Assembly (NCBI RefSeq): GCF_013122565.1
Contig: NZ_CP053258.1
Strand: one strand, 5' to 3'
DNA from: Escherichia coli
Lineage (GTDB): Bacteria > Pseudomonadota > Gammaproteobacteria > Enterobacterales > Enterobacteriaceae
Length of the DNA: 64,000 nucleotides
Both the position numbers and the translations under genes were made by a program. Below, piece after piece: positions 45,482-57,706 of this stretch (positions are counted from its first letter, which is position 1; each line of letters opens with the position of its first letter). The notes beneath the pieces were generated by a model, which did not search any database, was not told the DNA's origin, and saw nothing but the letters and a program-made list of their open reading frames with translations.

Positions 45482-46153
45482 ATGCAGTACCCGATTAACG
45501 AGATGTTCCAGACCCTGCAAGGTGAGGGTTACTTTACCGGCGTCCCCGCCATTTTTATTCGTTTACAGGGATGCCCGGTTGGCTGTGCCTGGTGCGACAC
45601 CAAACACACCTGGGAAAAGCTTGAGGATCGGGAAGTCTCCCTTTTCAGCATTCTGGCGAAGACCAAAGAGAGTGATAAGTGGGGGGCGGCGAGCAGTGAA
45701 GACTTGCTGGCTGTCATTGGTCGCCAGGGATATACCGCGCGGCATGTGGTGATTACGGGGGGTGAGCCTTGCATTCATGATTTGCTGCCACTGACTGACC
45801 TGCTCGAAAAGAACGGTTTTAGCTGCCAGATCGAAACCAGTGGTACTCATGAAGTACGCTGTACACCGAATACCTGGGTTACCGTATCGCCAAAGCTGAA
45901 CATGCGCGGCGGCTATGAAGTGTTGTCACAGGCACTGGAGCGAGCCAACGAAATCAAGCATCCAGTGGGACGCGTACGTGATATTGAAGCACTGGATGAA
46001 CTTTTGGCGACGCTGACCGATGATAAACCGCGAGTCATTGCACTGCAGCCGATTAGCCAAAAGGATGATGCCACACGTTTGTGCATTGAAACCTGCATTG
46101 CGCGTAATTGGCGTTTGTCGATGCAAACCCATAAATATTTAAATATTGCCTGA
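45482..46153 (+). CDS. queE: 7-carboxy-7-deazaguanine synthase QueE (radical SAM)
   Basis: 223 aa, radical-SAM Cys motif [10 protein letters not shown]. Confidence 0.95.
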
Positions 46154-46490
46154 TTAAACATTTATAAGTGTTATAAATGGGTGGAACCTGTAAAGAATTC
46201 CACTCATTTATATTGTTTGTCGCCTCTGAAAACCCCTCTTTTTTGCCCATCCTTGACTAATCATTATCATTCTCTACAAATTCTGTGGCGTTAATTTTTC
46301 GCTGGAGTGAAAATTATTGCGGTAAAGTTTGGTAGATTTTAGTTTGAATAGAGTTATTTTAAATATTTATCTTTTTAATCAATGGATTAAGTGCTCTTTA
46401 ACATAATGGATGTGTTGTTTGTGTGATCCTGTAAAGTTGTTAGATTGTGACTGGCTTAAAAAATCATTAATTAATAATAGGTTATGTTTA
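46154..46490 (+). promoter_or_regulatory. AT-rich CRISPR leader for the mini-array
   Basis: About 340 bp of AT-rich sequence immediately 5' of the first repeat. The distal repeat is degenerate, so this is the leader side. Confidence 0.55.
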
Positions 46491-46702
46491 GAGTTCCCCG
46501 CGCCAGCGGGGATAAACCGGCGATTATAGCGGACTTTCAAGAGAACAGTCTGAGTTCCCCGCGCCAGCGGGGATAAACCGTGGAAAATCACCGACAATAT
46601 TCGACATGGAGAGAGTTCCCCGCGCCAGCGAGGATAAACCGTTATCGGTCATCAACTATAGCGCGTATTTACTAAGTTCCCCGTTCCAACACGAATAATC
46701 CG
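46491..46702 (+). CRISPR. Type I-E CRISPR mini-array (CRISPR2-like): 3 intact repeats, 1 degenerate terminal repeat, 3 spacers of 32 bp
   Basis: Repeats gagttccccgcgccagcggggataaaccg at 46491, 46552 and 46613 (third has one mismatch). Degenerate repeat 46674..46702. Phase confirmed by the antisense artefact ORF 46379..46597. Confidence 0.95.
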
Positions 46703-46767
46703 ATAATATCGACGATACCAACCTAATATTATCAAATGTTAAAGGTTCTAATTTAAGAGGAAATTTA

Positions 46768-47031
46768 ATGTCTACGTTAATGGAAAAAGAATCTCTCCTG
46801 AATGGCGTGAGTCAAAATATTGCATTTTTATCAAATGTATCTGAAATGGTTTACAACTCTCAGAATGAAGAGTTGCAGTATGAAATATATGAGCTGGTGA
46901 GTTATAAAGATTATCTATACTCAACAGACCATGAACTTGTTGATTTTCAAGAGGGAGTATTACGATTTCAACAAATTAGAACAAAATACAGGCAAGAGCT
47001 AAAAGAACTCGGTTATCCTGTAGGTAATTAA
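46768..47031 (+). CDS. Hypothetical protein (87 aa, acidic, AT-rich codon usage)
   Basis: Intact ORF with SD aagagg 9 nt upstream. No homolog I recognise. Occupies the position where K-12 has ygcE..ygcN. Confidence 0.5.
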   Translation: MSTLMEKESLLNGVSQNIAFLSNVSEMVYNSQNEELQYEIYELVSYKDYLYSTDHELVDFQEGVLRFQQIRTKYRQELKELGYPVGN

Positions 47032-47393
47032 GAAATATTGTCTTGATGGTGGGGAAACGTAATTTTTTATATTTTAAATATTAGATTAAAACAATAAATT
47101 AATATCATACTTTTATTTTATTCTCGAAAATGCCTAATTTCATTAAATACGTTGTCCTGTAAATGTAAACCGGGCATTTTTCCGCCCGGTCTCCCTCGAT
47201 TACGCTTCTGAGCAGGTCTCGAGCGAATTCACACTCTCCCGTTCAACTTGCATCACCAGTTGGTTAAATTCAGTCAAACTCTCGCTCATAATAATAATGT
47301 CGCAGTCGTCTTCCATGTCATGCCCCAGATATCCAGAACACAACACCCTAACATAGCGTTACTTAAGGGAAATTGACCGCCGACACACTCTTA

Positions 47394-47759
47394 TCATTCG
47401 CCGCGATAGATACAACCTGCGGTGCAGGTTTCTTTCACCATCACTGCACTTAATAGCGGCACAACGGGTTTAACCTGATCCCAAATCCATTTTGCTAAAA
47501 CTTCGCTGGTTGGGTTTTCCAGACCTGGAATATCATTGAGATAATGGTGATCGAGGCGCTCATAAGTTGGCTTAAACGCCGCTTTCAGTTCAGCGAAATC
47601 GATAATCCAGCCCGTATGCGGATCGACTTCCCCGGTAATTTCCAGTCGCACCATAAAGGAATGCCCGTGCAGGCGACCACATTTATGTCCTTCCGGGACG
47701 TGTGGTAAGCGGTGAGCGGCTTCGAAGGTGAAATCTTTAAATAACGTGGTGGACATCAT
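47394..47759 (-). CDS. queD: 6-carboxy-5,6,7,8-tetrahydropterin synthase QueD
   Basis: 121 aa from [20 protein letters not shown]. The track ORF starts 28 codons upstream at a TTG. Confidence 0.93.
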
Positions 47760-48074
47760 AATTTCTCTACATGACGATAAAACCGCCGTAGAGTACCGGA
47801 AAGGCTGTTTTTTCGCATTATCTAAAACGACTTTGTTGCGCAAAATCGCTGATTTATCTTAATGATTGGCTAAATTCATTTGTTTTTCATTAGGTTGGTT
47901 AATCTATTTTGTTGTTAAAGACTATTGCTAAAACAGGTTAGTCGATTTGGTTATTAGTTATCGCTATCCCGTCTTTAATCCACACCGTTCACCCCGTTAA
48001 CCTTACCTTCTCTTCTGTTTTATGGGCGCTGACAGGGCGCAGAAACAGCTTTGCTTACTGGAACATAACGACGC

Positions 48075-49874
48075 ATGACGACACAGGTCCCACCTTCCGC
48101 GTTGCTTCCGTTGAACCCGGAGCAACTGGCACGCCTTCAGGCGGCCACGACCGATTTAACTCCCACCCAGCTTGCCTGGGTTTCTGGCTATTTCTGGGGC
48201 GTGCTCAATCAGCAGCCTGCTGCGCTTGCAGCGACGCCAGCGCCAGCCGCAGAAATGCCGGGTATAACTATTATCTCCGCCTCGCAAACTGGCAATGCGC
48301 GCCGGGTTGCTGAAGCATTACGCGATGATTTATTGACGGCAAAACTGAACGTTAAGCTGGTGAACGCGGGCGACTATAAATTCAAACAAATCGCCAGCGA
48401 AAAACTGCTCATCGTAGTGACGTCAACGCAAGGGGAAGGGGAACCGCCGGAAGAAGCCGTCGCGCTGCATAAGTTCCTGTTCTCCAAAAAAGCGCCAAAG
48501 CTGGAAAACACCGCGTTTGCCGTGTTTAGCCTCGGCGATAGCTCTTATGAATTTTTCTGCCAGTCCGGGAAAGATTTCGACAGCAAGCTGGCGGAACTGG
48601 GCGGTGAACGCCTGCTCGACCGTGTCGACGCCGACGTTGAATACCAGGCTGCTGCCAGCGAGTGGCGCGCCCGCGTGGTTGATGCGCTTAAATCGCGTGC
48701 GCCTGTCGCGGCACCTTCGCAATCCGTCTCTACTGGCGCGGTAAATGAAATCCACGCCAGCCCGTACAGCAAAGACGCGCCGCTGGTGGCGAGCCTCTCT
48801 GTTAACCAGAAAATTACCGGGCGTAACTCTGAAAAAGACGTTCGCCATATCGAAATTGACTTAGGTGACTCGGGCCTGCGTTACCAGCCGGGTGACGCGC
48901 TGGGCGTCTGGTATCAGAACGATCCGGCACTGGTGAAAGAACTTGTCGAACTGCTGTGGCTGAAAGGCGATGAACCTGTCACCGTCGAGGGCAAAACGTT
49001 GCCTCTGAACGAAGCGCTACAGTGGCACTTCGAACTGACCGTCAACACCGCCAACATTGTTGAGAATTACGCCACGCTTACCCGCAGTGAAACACTGCTG
49101 CCGCTGGTGGGCGATAAAGCGAAGTTACAGCATTACGCCGCGACCACGCCGATTGTCGACATGGTGCGTTTCTCTCCGGCGCAACTGGATGCCGAAGCGC
49201 TGATTAATCTGCTGCGTCCGCTGACCCCGCGCCTGTATTCCATCGCCTCCTCGCAGGCGGAAGTCGAGAACGAAGTACACGTCACCGTTGGTGTGGTGCG
49301 TTACGACGTGGAAGGCCGCGCCCGTGCCGGTGGTGCCTCCAGCTTCCTCGCGGATCGTGTGGAAGAAGAGGGCGAAGTCCGCGTATTTATCGAACATAAC
49401 GATAACTTCCGTTTGCCTGCTAACCCGGAAACCCCGGTGATTATGATTGGCCCCGGTACCGGCATCGCGCCGTTCCGTGCCTTTATGCAGCAACGCGCCG
49501 CCGACGAAGCGCCGGGTAAAAACTGGCTGTTCTTTGGCAACCCGCACTTTACGGAAGATTTCCTCTACCAGGTGGAGTGGCAGCGCTACGTCAAAGAGGG
49601 CGTGCTGACGCGTATCGATCTTGCCTGGTCGCGCGACCAAAAAGAAAAAGTTTATGTACAAGACAAACTGCGCGAACAGGGCGCGGAGCTGTGGCGCTGG
49701 ATCAATGACGGTGCCCACATTTATGTCTGCGGCGACGCTAATCGCATGGCGAAAGACGTTGAGCAGGCACTTCTGGAAGTGATTGCCGAATTTGGTGGCA
49801 TGGACACCGAAGCGGCGGATGAATTTTTAAGTGAGCTGCGCGTAGAGCGCCGTTATCAGCGAGATGTCTACTAA
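48075..49874 (+). CDS. cysJ: Sulfite reductase [NADPH] flavoprotein alpha subunit
   Basis: 599 aa. Confidence 0.97.
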
Positions 49875-52879: not shown

Positions 52880-53048
52880 TTATATTATTTATGTGAGTAT
52901 TATGCCTATGTTTATTATTTATATATATTACGGATGAAAATCATTTAATTATTCACAATGTAAATATTTTATTGAAAGATATATGTCACAGATAATTTTT
53001 AATATGTGCGTAAATATCCTTTAAGTTTTACTGAAGGATAAAAATATT
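52880..53048 (+). promoter_or_regulatory. AT-rich cas3 promoter region
   Basis: About 170 bp of very AT-rich sequence directly upstream of the cas3 start, typical of a nucleoid-protein-silenced cas promoter. Promoter elements not individually assigned. Confidence 0.4.
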
Positions 53049-54392
53049 GTGACTTTCTTTGATTTCTGGGGAAAAACCCGACGTGGCGAGAAAGAAGGGG
53101 GCGACGGCTATCACCTTCTTTGCTGGCATTCGCTGGATGTGGCCGCGATGGGCTATTTAATGGTTAAAAGAAATTGCTTCGGGCTGGCTGACTATTTTCG
53201 TCAATTAGGGATTTCTGACAAGGAACAGGCAGCTCAATTTTTCGCCTGGTTGCTGTGCTGGCACGATATTGGAAAATTTGCCCGCTCTTTTCAACAACTT
53301 TACCTGCCCCCTGAATTCAAGATTCAGGAAGGTGCCAGAAAAAATTACGAAAAAATCTCTCATTCAACGCTGGGCTACTGGTTGTGGAATCATTATTTAA
53401 GTGAATGTCAGGAGTTACTTCCTTCATCTTCGCTCTCTCCGCGCAAACTTAGGCGAGTGATAGAAATGTGGATGCCCGTGACGACAGGGCATCATGGTCG
53501 GCCCCCTGATCGTATGGATGAATTGGATAATTTTCTGCCTGAAGACAAAGCTGCAGCACGAGATTTTCTCCTTGAAATCAAACCACTGTTTCCGCTCATA
53601 GAGATCCCCGCATTCTGGGATGATGATGAGGGCATTGAACTTATAAAACACCTTTCCTGGTATATCTCTGCAACCGTCGTGCTCGCAGACTGGACGGGTT
53701 CGTCAACGCGATTTTTTCCACGCGTCGCACACCCAATGGATATTAAAGGTTACTGGCAGAAAACTTTAGTTCAGGCTCAAAATGCCTTAACCGTCTTTCC
53801 TCTAAAAGCAAAAGTCGCGCCTTTCACCGGAATTAATACGCTGTTTCCTTTTATTGAGAATCCGACACCGTTACAGCAAAAGGTGCTGGATCTGGATATC
53901 AGCCAGCCAGGGCCACAGTTATTTATTCTGGAAGATGTGACTGGCGCAGGTAAAACGGAAGCGGCGCTTATCCTGGCGCACAGGTTGATGGCTGCGGGTA
54001 AAGCGCAGGGTTTGTTTTTTGGCCTGCCAACAATGGCAACGGCCAATGCCATGTATGATCGGCTCGTCAAAACCTGGCTTTCTTTCTATTCGCCAGAATC
54101 TCGCCCCAGCCTGGTGCTGGCACACAGTGCCCGCACATTAATGGACCGCTTTAATGAATCACTCTGGTCCGGTGATTTAATCGGGTCAGAAGAACCGGAT
54201 GAACAAGCTTTCAGCCAGGGTTGTGCGGCCTGGTTTGCCGACAGTAACAAGAAGGCGTTGCTGGCTGAAATTGGCGTCGGCACCCTGGATCAGGCGATGA
54301 TGGCAGTGATGCCGTTTAAACATAATAATCTGCGGCTTCTGGGGCTGAGTAACAAAATCGTGTTCCCCGCGCCAGCGGGGATAAACCGATGA
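53049..54392 (+). pseudogene. cas3: Truncated cas3 (type I-E; HD nuclease domain and start of helicase domain only), fused to the CRISPR array
   Basis: 447-aa ORF with a GTG start. HD motif WHDIGKF and Walker A TGAGKTEAA. Collinear with the N-terminal half of K-12 Cas3 (888 aa, from memory). The frame runs through CRISPR repeat 1 (...NKIV|FPAPAGINR) and stops in spacer 1. Confidence 0.88.
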
Positions 54393-56647
54393 ATATTTGC
54401 GAATATTCGGCAGAAAGCGGGTGTTCCCCGCGCCAGCGGGGATAAACCGAGGTTGCGGCACAAATTGAGGTTGTCGCAAATGTGTTCCCCGCGCCAGCGG
54501 GGATAAACCGCCGACGCAGCAGCGGCAGCAGCGGCAGCAGCGGTGTTCCCCGCGCCAGCGGGGATAAACCGTGGATCAGTGCCGCGTTCTCTCTCCGTGT
54601 AATGTGTTCCCCGCGCCAGCGGGGATAAACCGATCGAGACGGGTACGCGTAAAGCCGAGCTGGCGTGTTCCCCGCGCCAGCGGGGATAAACCGCGATCGG
54701 TTAATTCTTCTACCTGCCTTTGCAGGTGTTCCCCGCGCCAGCGGGGATAAACCGCCCGCAATGCATTCGGGCAGTTCCTTGCCGGGGTGTTCCCCGCGCC
54801 AGCGGGGATAAACCGGAGATTGAGCCAGACGCCCGCCAGGTGTTACTGTGTTCCCCGCGCCAGCGGGGATAAACCGGAAGTAACACACCCAACCCAGGTT
54901 GCGCCAGAGTGTTCCCCGCGCCAGCGGGGATAAACCGCCTGTTTGAGCAGGCGCGAATGAACCGGACCAGTGTTCCCCGCGCCAGCGGGGATAAACCGTC
55001 AGGTAAGCCAGTGTTAGGGGCAATATAGCAGTGTTCCCCGCGCCAGCGGGGATAAACCGTCATCGGCTCGTTATTTGTAGCCAGCACTACGGTGTTCCCC
55101 GCGCCAGCGGGGATAAACCGCTTTATCAGATGGTAAAGGTGAATCAATATGAGTGTTCCCCGCGCCAGCGGGGATAAACCGATACCCCAGCGTTTCGTTA
55201 TATGACGGAAGATGTGTTCCCCGCGCCAGCGGGGATAAACCGTGCAACCAGGACGGCAGGACGCATCGCCAGATGTGTTCCCCGCGCCAGCGGGGATAAA
55301 CCGCACGTTATTATCCGATATTCACCGATAAGCGTGTGTTCCCCGCGCCAGCGGGGATAAACCGTCTGGGCGTAAACAGTCGGATAAATCGCGGGTGTGT
55401 TCCCCGCGCCAGCGGGGATAAACCGGCGGCGTGTGGGGTAACAATCAGGGAGAGAAAGTGTTCCCCGCGCCAGCGGGGATAAACCGGATAAATACAGTAT
55501 ATTCCCGCGCTCTGCTGGCGTGTTCCCCGCGCCAGCGGGGATAAACCGTAGATTTTGTCCGGCTCAGGTGCGCCGATGGTGTGTTCCCCGCGCCAGCGGG
55601 GATAAACCGATCGAGTACAACAAAAAATATACTGAGTGAGTGTGTTCCCCGCGCCAGCGGGGATAAACCGCTGTTTGCTCCTGCTGCTCATTTAGTGATT
55701 TAGTGTTCCCCGCGCCAGCGGGGATAAACCGCCTGTTCTTTTTTAGTCAACTTAACCATGCTCGTGTTCCCCGCGCCAGCGGGGATAAACCGTCTTTTTC
55801 GAGACTTGCAGCAACGCTCTGAAAGTGTTCCCCGCGCCAGCGGGGATAAACCGATCGAGTAGTTTTGAGGGTTGGTGAATTCAGGGTGTTCCCCGCGCCA
55901 GCGGGGATAAACCGCTTAATAAATGGACTTAAGCGCCCAGTATTGGGTGTTCCCCGCGCCAGCGGGGATAAACCGGGGAGGGCGAGCCGCCGTAGGTGCG
56001 GTGAGGGGTGTTCCCCGCGCCAGCGGGGATAAACCGACGCAGAAACTGGTTGAAATAGTTTACGGTGAGTGTTCCCCGCGCCAGCGGGGATAAACCGGCA
56101 GTAAATTATTTGACCTCGTTGATAATCCCGTGTTCCCCGCGCCAGCGGGGATAAACCGGTGGCGGTGTGATTGTGGGACTTATTGCCATCGTGTTCCCCG
56201 CGCCAGCGGGGATAAACCGGGCCTTTTCAGCAGATTAACCGCCGCGATTGCGTGTTCCCCGCGCCAGCGGGGATAAACCGAGAGATTTATATTCTTTCAA
56301 ACCGGATTATATCGTGTTCCCCGCGCCAGCGGGGATAAACCGCTTCAAGAATTTTTAAACGCTGGCTTCAAAATGTGTTCCCCGCGCCAGCGGGGATAAA
56401 CCGTCCCACGCGTGCCAGATGGCGCGTTTGATGGCGTGTTCCCCGCGCCAGCGGGGATAAACCGATGATAACGGCAAAGGGTACGCTACGTACAACGTGT
56501 TCCCCGCGCCAGCGGGGTTAAACTGTGATCCAGTGAGTACCGATCCGGGAACAACCGGTGTTCCTCGCATCAGCGGGGATAAACCGGGTGCACTGGATGC
56601 GATGATGGATATCACTTGGCGTTCCCCCGCCCCTGCGGTAGAACTCC
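54360..56647 (+). CRISPR. Type I-E CRISPR array: 37 repeat-spacer units plus a highly degenerate terminal repeat; no leader, no adjacent cas operon
   Basis: 29-bp repeat gtgttccccgcgccagcggggataaaccg with period 61. Spacers are 32 bp except one of 33 bp (55487..55519). Repeat phase verified against the antisense artefact ORFs ([10 protein letters not shown] / VYPRWRGEH / GLSPLARGT). Degenerate repeats at 56497, 56558 and 56619 mark the leader-distal end, next to iap. Confidence 0.97.
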
Positions 56648-56668
56648 CAGCTCCCATTTTCAAACCCA

Positions 56669-57706
56669 TCAAGACGCCTTCGCCAACTCCTTCACCAGAG
56701 GTAGCATTATCCGCATAACGTCACGGCAGCGACGTTCTATTCTTCCAGGAAGTGCCTTATCAATATGCTGTTGATTATCCAGTCTTACGTCATGCCAGCT
56801 ATTTCCCGCAGGGAATGCGGCTGTTTTTGCGCGTTGCTGATAACCATCCTTATTCCCAAGATTCCAGTTAGTCGCTTCCACCGAAAGTACAGCAATGCCC
56901 GCTTTGTCGAATATTTCGGCGTCATTACAACATCCAGTGCCTTTCGGATAATTTTTATTCAAACCCGGATTGGTCGTTGCGGCAATTCCATGACTACGCG
57001 CAATTGCCAGCGCCCTGTCGCGCGTTAATTTCCTTACTGCTTCAGGGGTTTTTACACCGCTGTTGAAATACAATTTATCGCCAACAATTAAGTTATCGAG
57101 ATTAATCACCAGCAGCGTATTTTTCTTTTCGGTGTCACTCATCCGCTTGAGTAAATTCTCAGCGCCTAATTTTCCTTCCTCTTCGCCGCTGGTCGCCACA
57201 AATCGAATACCATACTCGGTAGGCGTATTTTTCAGGCGTTCTGCCAGTTCCAGCATGACACCTAAACCTGCGGCGTTATCATCTATTCCTTGTAACGTCA
57301 GTCCGCCGAGATTGGCATCGGCGTCAGCATCGCTCAGCGGGGCGTAAGTATCCAGATGCGCCATAATGATGATCTGCTGCGGCGCTTTGCCTTCATGAGC
57401 GGCAATCACCGTACTTCCCGTCACGTTATGCCAGCTCTTACGATTATCGCGGGCGGTATAAATATATCGACTATTAAATGTCCGAATATCACTGCGATAA
57501 CCCATTTGCTGAAACTGTTGGCGAATATAATCGGCAGATAACATTTCTGCAGGAGTTCCGGTCATGCGTCCCGGAAAGAAAGTAGCAATATGTCGTGCCT
57601 GGGTATTAGCAAAATCGCCAGGTTTAGGTGACGAGGCGTGTACGGGGAGAATAAAGCATACGCCGAGCGCCAGGGCAGCGGTACGGTGGCGCAATGCGGA
57701 AAACAT
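56669..57706 (-). CDS. iap: Alkaline phosphatase isozyme conversion aminopeptidase Iap
   Basis: 345 aa, signal peptide, M28-type peptidase. Confidence 0.93.
   Translation of the reverse strand: MFSALRHRTAALALGVCFILPVHASSPKPGDFANTQARHIATFFPGRMTGTPAEMLSADYIRQQFQQMGYRSDIRTFNSRYIYTARDNRKSWHNVTGSTVIAAHEGKAPQQIIIMAHLDTYAPLSDADADANLGGLTLQGIDDNAAGLGVMLELAERLKNTPTEYGIRFVATSGEEEGKLGAENLLKRMSDTEKKNTLLVINLDNLIVGDKLYFNSGVKTPEAVRKLTRDRALAIARSHGIAATTNPGLNKNYPKGTGCCNDAEIFDKAGIAVLSVEATNWNLGNKDGYQQRAKTAAFPAGNSWHDVRLDNQQHIDKALPGRIERRCRDVMRIMLPLVKELAKAS

Follow-up and report, generated by a model that had tools for sequence, protein, structure and literature searches.

Repeats downstream of iap in Escherichia coli K-12 were reportedly first reported by Ishino et al. 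in 1987, and leader-distal repeat degeneracy is said to have been recognised by Jansen et al. in 2002 and to be used by CRISPRDirection for orienting arrays. The iap-proximal degenerate repeat and conserved spacer of E. coli CRISPR-I were reportedly noted by Diez-Villasenor et al. in 2010. In type I-E adaptation, new units join the array at the leader end only, and each new repeat copies the leader-proximal repeat. The same spacer and degenerated repeat occur at the iap end of E. coli CRISPR-I whatever the cas variant, and an anchor role has been proposed in which the degenerate repeat, by recombining less with canonical repeats, shields the end of the array (Almendros et al. 2014, PMC3903273). 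The anchor is also covered by Touchon & Rocha (2010, PMC2886076), who described 3'-end-specific degeneration as well as degraded type I-E loci keeping just a cas3 pseudogene in Shigella flexneri and some Salmonella. Leader-distal repeat degeneracy is used for array orientation by CRISPRDetect (PMC4869251).

Organisation of the array and its iap-side end

The 64,000-nt stretch of E. coli DNA analysed here (the window) contains a type I-E CRISPR-I (CRISPR2.1) array that spans 54360-56647, terminal degenerate unit included. The array body (54360-56464, plus strand) is built of 35 perfect copies of the 29-nt consensus repeat GTGTTCCCCGCGCCAGCGGGGATAAACCG, found from 54360 to 56436 by direct reading and a pattern search, and of unique 32-33-nt spacers; the number of matches with up to three mismatches expected by chance is 0.00 (100 shuffles). 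The whole array holds 37 spacers, each of 32 or 33 nt with a 61-62-nt period and no duplicate inside the array. With 35 perfect and two near copies, the repeat is of the E. coli/Salmonella type, G[T/A]GTTCCCCGCGCCAGCGGGGATAAACCG, with a palindromic core, and the consensus folds into a 7-bp hairpin of -15.2 kcal/mol. The gene order is cysJ-cysI-cysH-cas3 stub-array-iap-cysD, the same order being found in K-12 and EC21Z-014, and the array lies between iap and cysH, convergent with iap, as is characteristic of type I-E CRISPR-I. The iap gene (alkaline phosphatase isozyme conversion aminopeptidase, an M28 peptidase) occupies 56669-57706 on the minus strand as a 345-aa ORF with a Peptidase_M28 match; the matching gene is annotated iap in E. 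coli records, and an exact-protein look-up found the identical Iap protein to be widespread across many locus types. A scan of 56200-56800 against Rfam at E<=1 returned no family and hence no separate indication of strand.

Three variant repeats close the array at 56497, 56558 and 56619 in exact 61-nt phase and, as an earlier note on this DNA had claimed, they carry two mismatches, three mismatches and a barely recognisable sequence, respectively. Under random placement, the probability that three variants among 38 repeats would all come last is 1/C(38,3) = 1/8436. The antepenultimate repeat GTGTTCCCCGCGCCAGCGGGGtTAAACtG (56497-56525, plus strand) differs from the consensus by A22T and C28T in the pattern search, both of which fall in the part forming the crRNA 5' handle, and its hairpin is intact (-14.0 vs -15.2 kcal/mol for the consensus). 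No place covering >=80% of a query made of this unit and spacers 35 and 36 was found among 5,426 complete E. coli genomes, and spacer 36, TGATCCAGTGAGTACCGATCCGGGAACAACCG (56526-56557, plus strand), was seen in neither the other E. coli genomes nor phages. The penultimate repeat GTGTTCCtCGCatCAGCGGGGATAAACCG (56558-56586, plus strand) carries C8T, which creates a G-U pair in the stem, and G12A and C13T, which lie in the loop, and the hairpin is kept at -11.4 kcal/mol. Its orthologue in K-12 and O157:H7, likewise in penultimate position, carries just G12A and C13T, and C8T is absent from every other locus examined.

The last (oldest) spacer, GGTGCACTGGATGCGATGATGGATATCACTTG (56587-56618, plus strand), is followed by the terminal degenerate repeat GCGTTCCCCCGCCCCTGCGGTAGAACTCC (56619-56647, plus strand), which begins exactly 61 nt past the preceding repeat. 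This remnant has a 1-nt insertion, a 4-bp core stem and an unrecognisable 3' third, and can be aligned to the consensus solely with indels. A 21-nt trailer follows at 56648-56668, composed of CAGCTCCC and then ATTTTCAAACCCA, the latter being the 13 nt past the iap stop, an iap 3' flank that is conserved even in array-less strains. With 21 nt between, the iap stop codon (56669-56671) starts 22 nt beyond the end of the remnant at 56647, in agreement with the distance previously given.

The polarity proposed in the earlier note, with the oldest spacers on the iap side, is borne out by three observations. An AT-rich leader and cas2 lie opposite the iap end in the orthologous arrays of K-12 and EC21Z-014; the last spacer recurs across many E. 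coli lineages and in one further Escherichia species; and a second array within the window shows the same orientation. This CRISPR-II mini-array (46330-46702, plus strand) comprises an AT-rich leader, three GAGTTCCCC... repeats and a degenerate fourth unit. Its repeats lie at 46491-46702, the third with one extra substitution (G19A), and the fourth unit (46674-46702) retains 21/29 matches. With the leader still upstream and the 3' end decayed, the mini-array is an in-window control for leader-to-decay polarity.

Origin of the degenerate units

Considered in the window alone, the 56619 remnant is weak, as its score is equalled at 112/61,250 (0.18%) non-array positions, and this speaks for reading the degenerate units, especially 56619-56647, as unrelated sequence that resembles the repeat by chance. 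The remnant is nevertheless significant at the single in-phase position, and it is secured by the comparative alignment. When aligned to other strains, the units prove homologous, with the last spacer and terminal repeat common to K-12, O157:H7, W and many other E. coli, and the last two repeats, the last spacer and the 21-nt trailer are orthologous with K-12 and 15 other E. coli-group loci. The remnant itself has the K-12 terminal unit GAGTTCCCCCGCCTCTGCGGTAGAACTCC as its orthologue, from which it differs by 2 nt, and less decayed, recognisable terminal repeats are found at the equivalent place in A37 (GAGCTCCCCCGCGTCAGCGGGGAACTCC), SCPM-O-B-8794 (GTGTTCCCCGCGCCAGCGGGGATGTCCCA) and E. albertii. 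The other two units have only two or three mismatches against a chance expectation of 0.00. A chance origin is refuted by the alignment and can be regarded as extremely improbable.

Instead, the decayed units almost certainly constitute the leader-distal trailer of a chromosomal type I-E CRISPR-I/CRISPR2.1 array, in which the oldest units are worn and a terminal anchor is retained. Since new repeats are copied at the leader end, the young end would stay uniform and the oldest iap-side units would gather uncorrected point mutations and small indels. The terminal unit would have diverged before the split of the sampled E. coli lineages; the penultimate repeat appears to have changed stepwise across lineages, from GCGCCA through GCGTCA and GCATCA to CCTCGCATCA here; and the changes in the antepenultimate unit were encountered in no lineage but that of the present window. 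A diverged terminal unit would recombine poorly with other repeats (as proposed by Almendros et al. 2014, PMC3903273), so that it would survive array contractions together with the preceding spacer as a fixed anchor. The present array is a fossil: its leader has been deleted along with every cas gene but for a cas3 stub, so that it can gain no new units and can only decay further.

The distribution of the terminal tandem of spacer and degenerate repeat is broad. It is present in K-12 (the form with GAG repeat and 94-aa Cas2), EC21Z-014, O157:H7, W, Ch1 and seven further assemblies, and it persists in arrays cut down to 1-3 spacers. With 1-3 SNPs, the last spacer closes the array in Escherichia sp. 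MOD1-EC7003 as well as in K-12, O157:H7, W, EC21Z-014 and others. The segment 56557-56760 is matched by the large majority of E. coli genomes at about 92-97.5% identity, and in array-less strains of the Nissle type the match starts only at 56658. In 13 iap-downstream arrays of other species, a set that includes Salmonella, Citrobacter, Enterobacter, Raoultella, Klebsiella and E. albertii, variant repeats are likewise concentrated in the last 1-3 units.

That the repeats decay progressively towards iap, as the earlier note described, holds in so far as all three are true decayed repeats, but the series mixes events of very different ages: the remnant is ancient and E. coli-wide, G12A and C13T are common to K-12 and O157:H7, and the 56497 unit was met in none of the 5,426 complete E. 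coli genomes. Furthermore, a perfect repeat precedes the conserved last spacer in EC21Z-014, W and ST130, and array position is therefore not a strict clock; inter-repeat deletions can bring a young repeat beside an old spacer.

The further suggestion that the array ancestrally extended to an iap terminator did not stand. No terminator-like site, in the sense of a G+C-rich hairpin with a U-run after it, was detected by a scan of the minus strand in 56300-57000, the iap 3' flank accounts for 13 of the 21 nt in between, and there is no room for a further unit. The distance between the end of the terminal repeat and the iap stop is likewise 14-35 nt in Salmonella, Citrobacter, Raoultella and Klebsiella indica, which makes the remnant look like a long-standing array boundary and not the survivor of eroded units.

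On another reading, the terminal repeat was not worn by age but was never a perfect copy, being the original seed or boundary repeat whose 3' end already differed when the array arose. Its counterpart in Salmonella, Citrobacter, Raoultella, K. indica and E. coli SCPM-O-B-8794 is perfect or nearly so across the hairpin, with differences confined to the final 5-8 nt, and 3'-end-specific degeneration was described by Touchon & Rocha (PMC2886076). Given that the repeats of the other genera differ only in these last nucleotides, some of the terminal degeneracy may be as old as the array itself and not a product of gradual wear. As an account of the remnant in the window, however, a seed origin is rather unlikely: an indel and stem substitutions are further features of the remnant here and in most E. 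coli, the E. coli variants differ from one another (CCCCC vs CCCC; CCCCT vs CCTCT), indicating continuing change, and the penultimate and antepenultimate repeats show ordinary decay by point mutation.

The pervasiveness of the tandem could also reflect selection, with the terminal unit acting in the termination or insulation of convergent iap and CRISPR transcripts, as a recombination anchor preserving the locus, or as a crRNA-like regulatory RNA. Almendros et al. (PMC3903273) put forward the anchor role, and the remnant still folds as a small hairpin. A selected function nonetheless seems improbable, as there is no terminator-like site on the iap strand, the iap 3' region does not fold more stably than shuffled sequence (z = -0.34), the tandem accumulates SNPs and indels between strains, and it is deleted in Escherichia sp. 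MOD1-EC7003 and all array-less strains with no obvious consequence. Beyond chance 11-mers, complementarity between the last spacer and the cas operon or local chromosome is lacking, and a CreR-like regulatory reading of it was rejected, complementarity to the cas3/cse1 region being no better than chance. A search of 50,697 phage records for protospacers of the two oldest spacers yielded just repeat-derived matches in mislabelled CRISPR fragments.

The cas3 stub joined to the first repeat

At its other end, the array abuts a cas3 pseudogene (53007-54359, plus strand) that comprises the first 1353 nt of the gene, encodes the HD domain and the helicase start, and has a stop at codon 6; no record matched the truncated Cas3 ORF when it was looked up. 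Nucleotide 1353 of cas3 runs straight into the first repeat at 54360, and the leader and cse1-cas2 are absent. A leader and a cas2-cas1-...-cas3 operon opposite iap are therefore lacking in the window, where the leader, presumed present in the earlier note, has been deleted; in intact relatives, cas2 ends 87-99 nt before the first repeat. Owing to these absences, the locus is a degraded member of type I-E, homologous but incomplete.

An exact cas3/repeat fusion occurs in five independent E. coli-group lineages, namely the present window, A37, STEC384, JML285 and SCPM-O-B-8794, with cas3 breakpoints at nt 1353, 1671, 1569, 1196 and 1263, respectively, all within 475 nt. Microhomology is absent at three to five of the five junctions. 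We tentatively propose that the leaderless, cas-less fossil was made by a deletion ending exactly on repeat base 1, which would fit a site-specific self-deletion of the cas operon and leader. The 5' boundary of the repeat is the normal strand-transfer site of Cas1-Cas2. As a candidate route, the Cas1-Cas2 integrase could join a chromosomal 3'-OH end to this boundary; alternatively, a half-integrated cas3-derived fragment might have been repaired. An origin of the junctions by recombination of a cas3-derived spacer with cas3 is disfavoured, as an AAG PAM precedes the 32 nt left of the junction in 0/5 cases and no flipped CTT is present. Among the 37+ spacers of the fused arrays, none matches the cas operon or local chromosome. 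In a further test of such an origin, an 8.7-kb cas-operon query of 2,792 genomes found only 19 extra places, but the query was insensitive, as most alleles are only 90-95% identical.

Other deletions of the operon were also surveyed. Among 60 sampled rows of the operon-wide search, no deletion retained the left part of cse1-cas2 while extending into the array; the truncated classes in this sample are internal deletions keeping cas2 and the leader, together with one IS91-associated case. W13-16, considered as a sixth junction, was rejected: its deletion lies inside cas3, begins no more than 2 nt from the STEC384 breakpoint and is not an array fusion. Top-strand Chi sites (L013-rc 4988 and 9038) lie 860-1335 nt or more from the breakpoints and show no clear link to them. 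If confirmed, the exact fusions would point to a specific molecular mechanism behind the natural loss of type I-E immunity that is frequent in E. coli and Shigella.

Comparison with described arrays

A decayed leader-distal end with a conserved anchor has already been described for E. coli CRISPR-I, and the feature in the window is real but ordinary. As a polarity marker and anchor, it is useful for array orientation and strain typing and adds no new biology; the old end at iap, with the leader and cas genes missing, marks the array as an inactive relic. Compared with leader-distal degeneracy in general, the mutated repeats again lie at the 3' end, and with no material difference the locus is a textbook instance. 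In relation to the K-12 repeats of Ishino et al., the same array end is present in a different strain, with a GTG and not a GAG repeat and with different spacers except the last.

The closest match is the anchor of Almendros et al. 2014 (PMC3903273), with which the locus, the last spacer, the terminal degenerate repeat and the 21-nt trailer are the same. Unlike the known anchor unit, the present lineage adds C8T and a mutated antepenultimate unit flanked by spacers unseen elsewhere, and the array is long (37 spacers) yet has neither leader nor cas operon. In this respect it resembles the degraded loci of Shigella flexneri and Salmonella, in which the cas operon is deleted, a cas3 stub is left and the array persists. 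The exact joining of the stub to repeat base 1 is a fusion of which no description was found in the literature searched.

Anatomy and orthology of the array end

The main type I-E array (CRISPR-I/CRISPR2.1), which is convergent with iap, contains 35 perfect copies of the 29-nt consensus GTGTTCCCCGCGCCAGCGGGGATAAACCG between 54360 and 56436, found by pattern search at a period of 61-62 nt, and 37 spacers of 32-33 nt each, none of them duplicated. Spacer 3 (54516-54543) is of unusually low complexity, consisting of a GCAGCAGCG tandem repeat (CGACGCAGCAGCGGCAGCAGCGGCAGCAGCG). Two imperfect repeats follow the perfect copies, at 56497-56525 (two substitutions, A22T and C28T) and 56558-56586 (three substitutions, C8T, G12A and C13T), and the array closes with a remnant, GCGTTCCCCCGCCCCTGCGGTAGAACTCC, at 56619-56647, which is exactly in phase and requires indels to be aligned with the consensus. 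The number of consensus matches with three or fewer mismatches expected by chance, from shuffled sequence, is 0.00. The score of the remnant is equalled at 0.18% of non-array positions, a level that suffices for a single in-phase position chosen in advance but does not compel by itself. RNA folding indicates that the stem-loop is kept in the 56497 unit (-14.0 kcal/mol) and the 56558 unit (-11.4) relative to the consensus (-15.2), and that no more than a 4-bp core of the stem is left in the remnant. The iap gene lies on the minus strand (56669..57706) as a 345-aa ORF with a Peptidase_M28 match, annotated as iap in matching E. coli records, and its stop codon (56669-56671) starts 22 nt beyond the remnant. 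Direct reading and search thus agreed with the earlier note on the repeat positions, the mismatch counts, the in-phase remnant and the 22-nt distance to the stop codon.

Alignment of the terminal units to arrays from other strains recovered the same tandem in K-12, O157:H7, W and others. In the same orientation, the K-12 MG1655 array ends with GTGTTCCCCGCATCAGCGGGGATAAACCG, GGCGCACTGGATGCGATGATGGATATCACTTG, GAGTTCCCCCGCCTCTGCGGTAGAACTCC and CAGCTCCCATTTTCAAACCCA, followed by the iap stop codon. Relative to K-12, the window carries a single change in its penultimate repeat (C8T), a single change in the spacer and two changes in the terminal unit. The tandem of last spacer and degenerate repeat also closes the array in EC21Z-014 (a relative with an intact cas operon), O157:H7 F1273, Ch1, ESY001, ST130, W, 1504D004 and seven further assemblies with the identical Iap protein. 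The query was matched in 5,371 of 5,426 complete E. coli genomes, in most from window position 56557 on, at ~92-97.5% identity. Recognizable repeats occupy the aligned position of the remnant in strains with other terminal configurations, such as A37 (GAGCTCCCCCGCGTCAGCGGGGAACTCC), SCPM-O-B-8794 (GTGTTCCCCGCGCCAGCGGGGATGTCCCA) and E. albertii (GTGTTCCCCGCGCCCAACGGGGAATATCTGG). The alternative that the degenerate units are unrelated sequence was rejected, given the orthologous tandem in other strains and the clear repeats at the aligned position.

The repeat before the conserved spacer forms a series among strains, from GCGCCA through GCGTCA and GCATCA to CCTCGCATCA in the window, and the 56497 repeat and its two flanking spacers were not found in any of the 5,426 complete E. 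coli genomes searched. The series at 56558 and the absence of the 56497 unit elsewhere indicate that the three "decayed" units are of three different ages. The units are true decayed repeats, as the alignment demonstrates, and the progressive decay described in the earlier note combines events of different ages.

In Escherichia sp. MOD1-EC7003, the last E. coli spacer is kept without the terminal degenerate repeat and runs into GGGAGCTTCCATTATCAAACTCA. The motif AGCTCCC stands on both sides of the terminal repeat in A37, suggesting that the repeat may have been lost from MOD1-EC7003 by deletion between short direct repeats.

The array boundary at iap

The proposal that the array ancestrally extended to the iap terminator is not supported. 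A terminator scan found no minus-strand terminator-like site after iap, and the iap 3' region folds no better than shuffled sequence. Of the 21 nt between the remnant and the iap stop, 13 (ATTTTCAAACCCA) belong to the flank of iap itself and are also found in array-less strains and species, and alignment of array-less strains such as Nissle 1917 to the window begins only at 56658. In Salmonella diarizonae, Citrobacter, Raoultella terrigena and Klebsiella indica, the distance between the end of the terminal repeat and the iap stop is 14-35 nt, and in one Enterobacter a further degenerate unit reaches up to the stop. The simplest reading of these sequences is that the array boundary has long been seated against the iap stop, and that the remnant represents this boundary and is not what survives of a longer eroded series. 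The terminal repeats of these non-E. coli genera are unaltered as far as the hairpin extends and diverge only at the 3' end, so some terminal divergence may be original and not wear; the indel and stem substitutions of the E. coli remnant are additional decay.

Two terminator-like sites, each a hairpin with a T-run, are predicted on the plus (array) strand at 56717-56736 and 56806-56820, just inside the iap coding region and 70-160 nt beyond the last repeat, where CRISPR read-through could stop; their count is not above expectation (two versus a shuffled mean of 0.7).

A leaderless array fused to cas3

The array has neither a leader nor a cas operon, and is thus a fossil for which further growth is impossible. 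The ORF running into the first repeat matches only the Cas3 HD domain in Pfam, and its homology to cas3 of the intact EC21Z-014 operon (96% identity) ends at 54359, beyond which intact cas3 reads CTGCTGGCTGATGAG and the window reads GTGTTCCCCGCG. At its 5' end (53007-53025), this cas3 stub (53007..54359, plus strand) lacks the start codon region and has a stop at codon 6; it is therefore a decaying pseudogene, and maintenance as an HD-only protein does not apply. The window's junction (54359/54360; cas3 nt 1353), at which the leader and cse1-cas2 are deleted, is shared by none of the complete RefSeq E. coli genomes.

Different, independent cas3 breakpoints occur in four further E. coli strains, at nt 1196 (JML285), 1263 (SCPM-O-B-8794), 1569 (STEC384) and 1671 (A37), and in each the cas3 sequence passes directly into base 1 of a canonical repeat; listed by locus and independently of the strain order, the junctions lie at 1435/1436 (locus L004), 3069/3070 (L094), 2696/2697 (L095) and 3522/3523 (L017, reverse complement). 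Three of the five junctions lack microhomology, and the other two have no more than 1 nt of it. The base that follows in intact cas3 is not G in three cases and is G in A37, and the last cas3 base in SCPM-O-B-8794 is the same as the last leader base, so that each of these two junctions is ambiguous by 1 nt. With randomly placed array-side ends, the probability of five exact fusions would be ~(1/61)^5. AAG precedes the 32 nt left of the junction in 0/5 cases, the fusion-bearing arrays contain no cas-derived spacers, and no properly oriented Chi sites are adjacent to the junctions. Integrase-type joining at the 5' boundary of the repeat is one candidate mechanism, and recombination via a cas3-derived spacer or a half-integrated fragment is another. 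Elsewhere in the population, cas deletions are internal ones that leave the leader in place. An internal 615-nt deletion within cas3 of E. coli O139:H1 W13-16 (locus L107, 870-872; ...CCTGGCTGACG), starts at most 2 nt from the STEC384 breakpoint, a near-coincidence that hints at a possible recurrent break site in cas3. No description of an exact cas3-repeat fusion was found in the literature searched, coverage of which was incomplete, and novelty is not proven.

Polarity and persistence of the terminal units

The assignment of the iap side as leader-distal was upheld. In intact relatives, the AT-rich leader and cas2 are on the side opposite iap, and cas2 stops 87-99 nt short of the first repeat. 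Among 80 Enterobacteriaceae iap loci, variant repeats are clustered in the last 1-3 units of 13 arrays in the iap downstream region, counting arrays with six or more units. The type I-E CRISPR-II mini-array (46491-46702; 46330-46702 with its leader) is a control inside the window for leader-to-decay polarity: an intact AT-rich leader lies upstream of three GAGTTCCCC... repeats, the third with one extra substitution, and of a degenerate fourth unit (46674-46702) that matches at 21/29 positions. Its repeats carry the variant GAG, versus GTG in the main array. The mini-array is packed with queE and queD within ~2.4 kb (45482-48075), an arrangement covered in only 7 of the 5,426 complete E. coli genomes; the ~10-kb ygcE...ygcN block that separates queE and queD on the K-12 map is absent from the window.

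Adaptation in type I-E systems adds new units next to the leader, with the leader-proximal repeat as template for the new one, so uniformity is renewed at the leader end only. A diverged terminal repeat would recombine poorly with canonical repeats, and would thereby persist with its spacer through array contractions. In some strains a perfect repeat directly precedes the old spacer, which is consistent with such contractions. Array-end anatomy, orthology, polarity and the clustering of variants at the trailer end were all established here. The inference of polarity from decayed repeats is standard (PMC4869251), the decayed iap-proximal array end has already been described in the literature, including by Almendros et al., and the idea of a persistent terminal repeat and spacer as an "anchor" is likewise theirs (PMC3903273).
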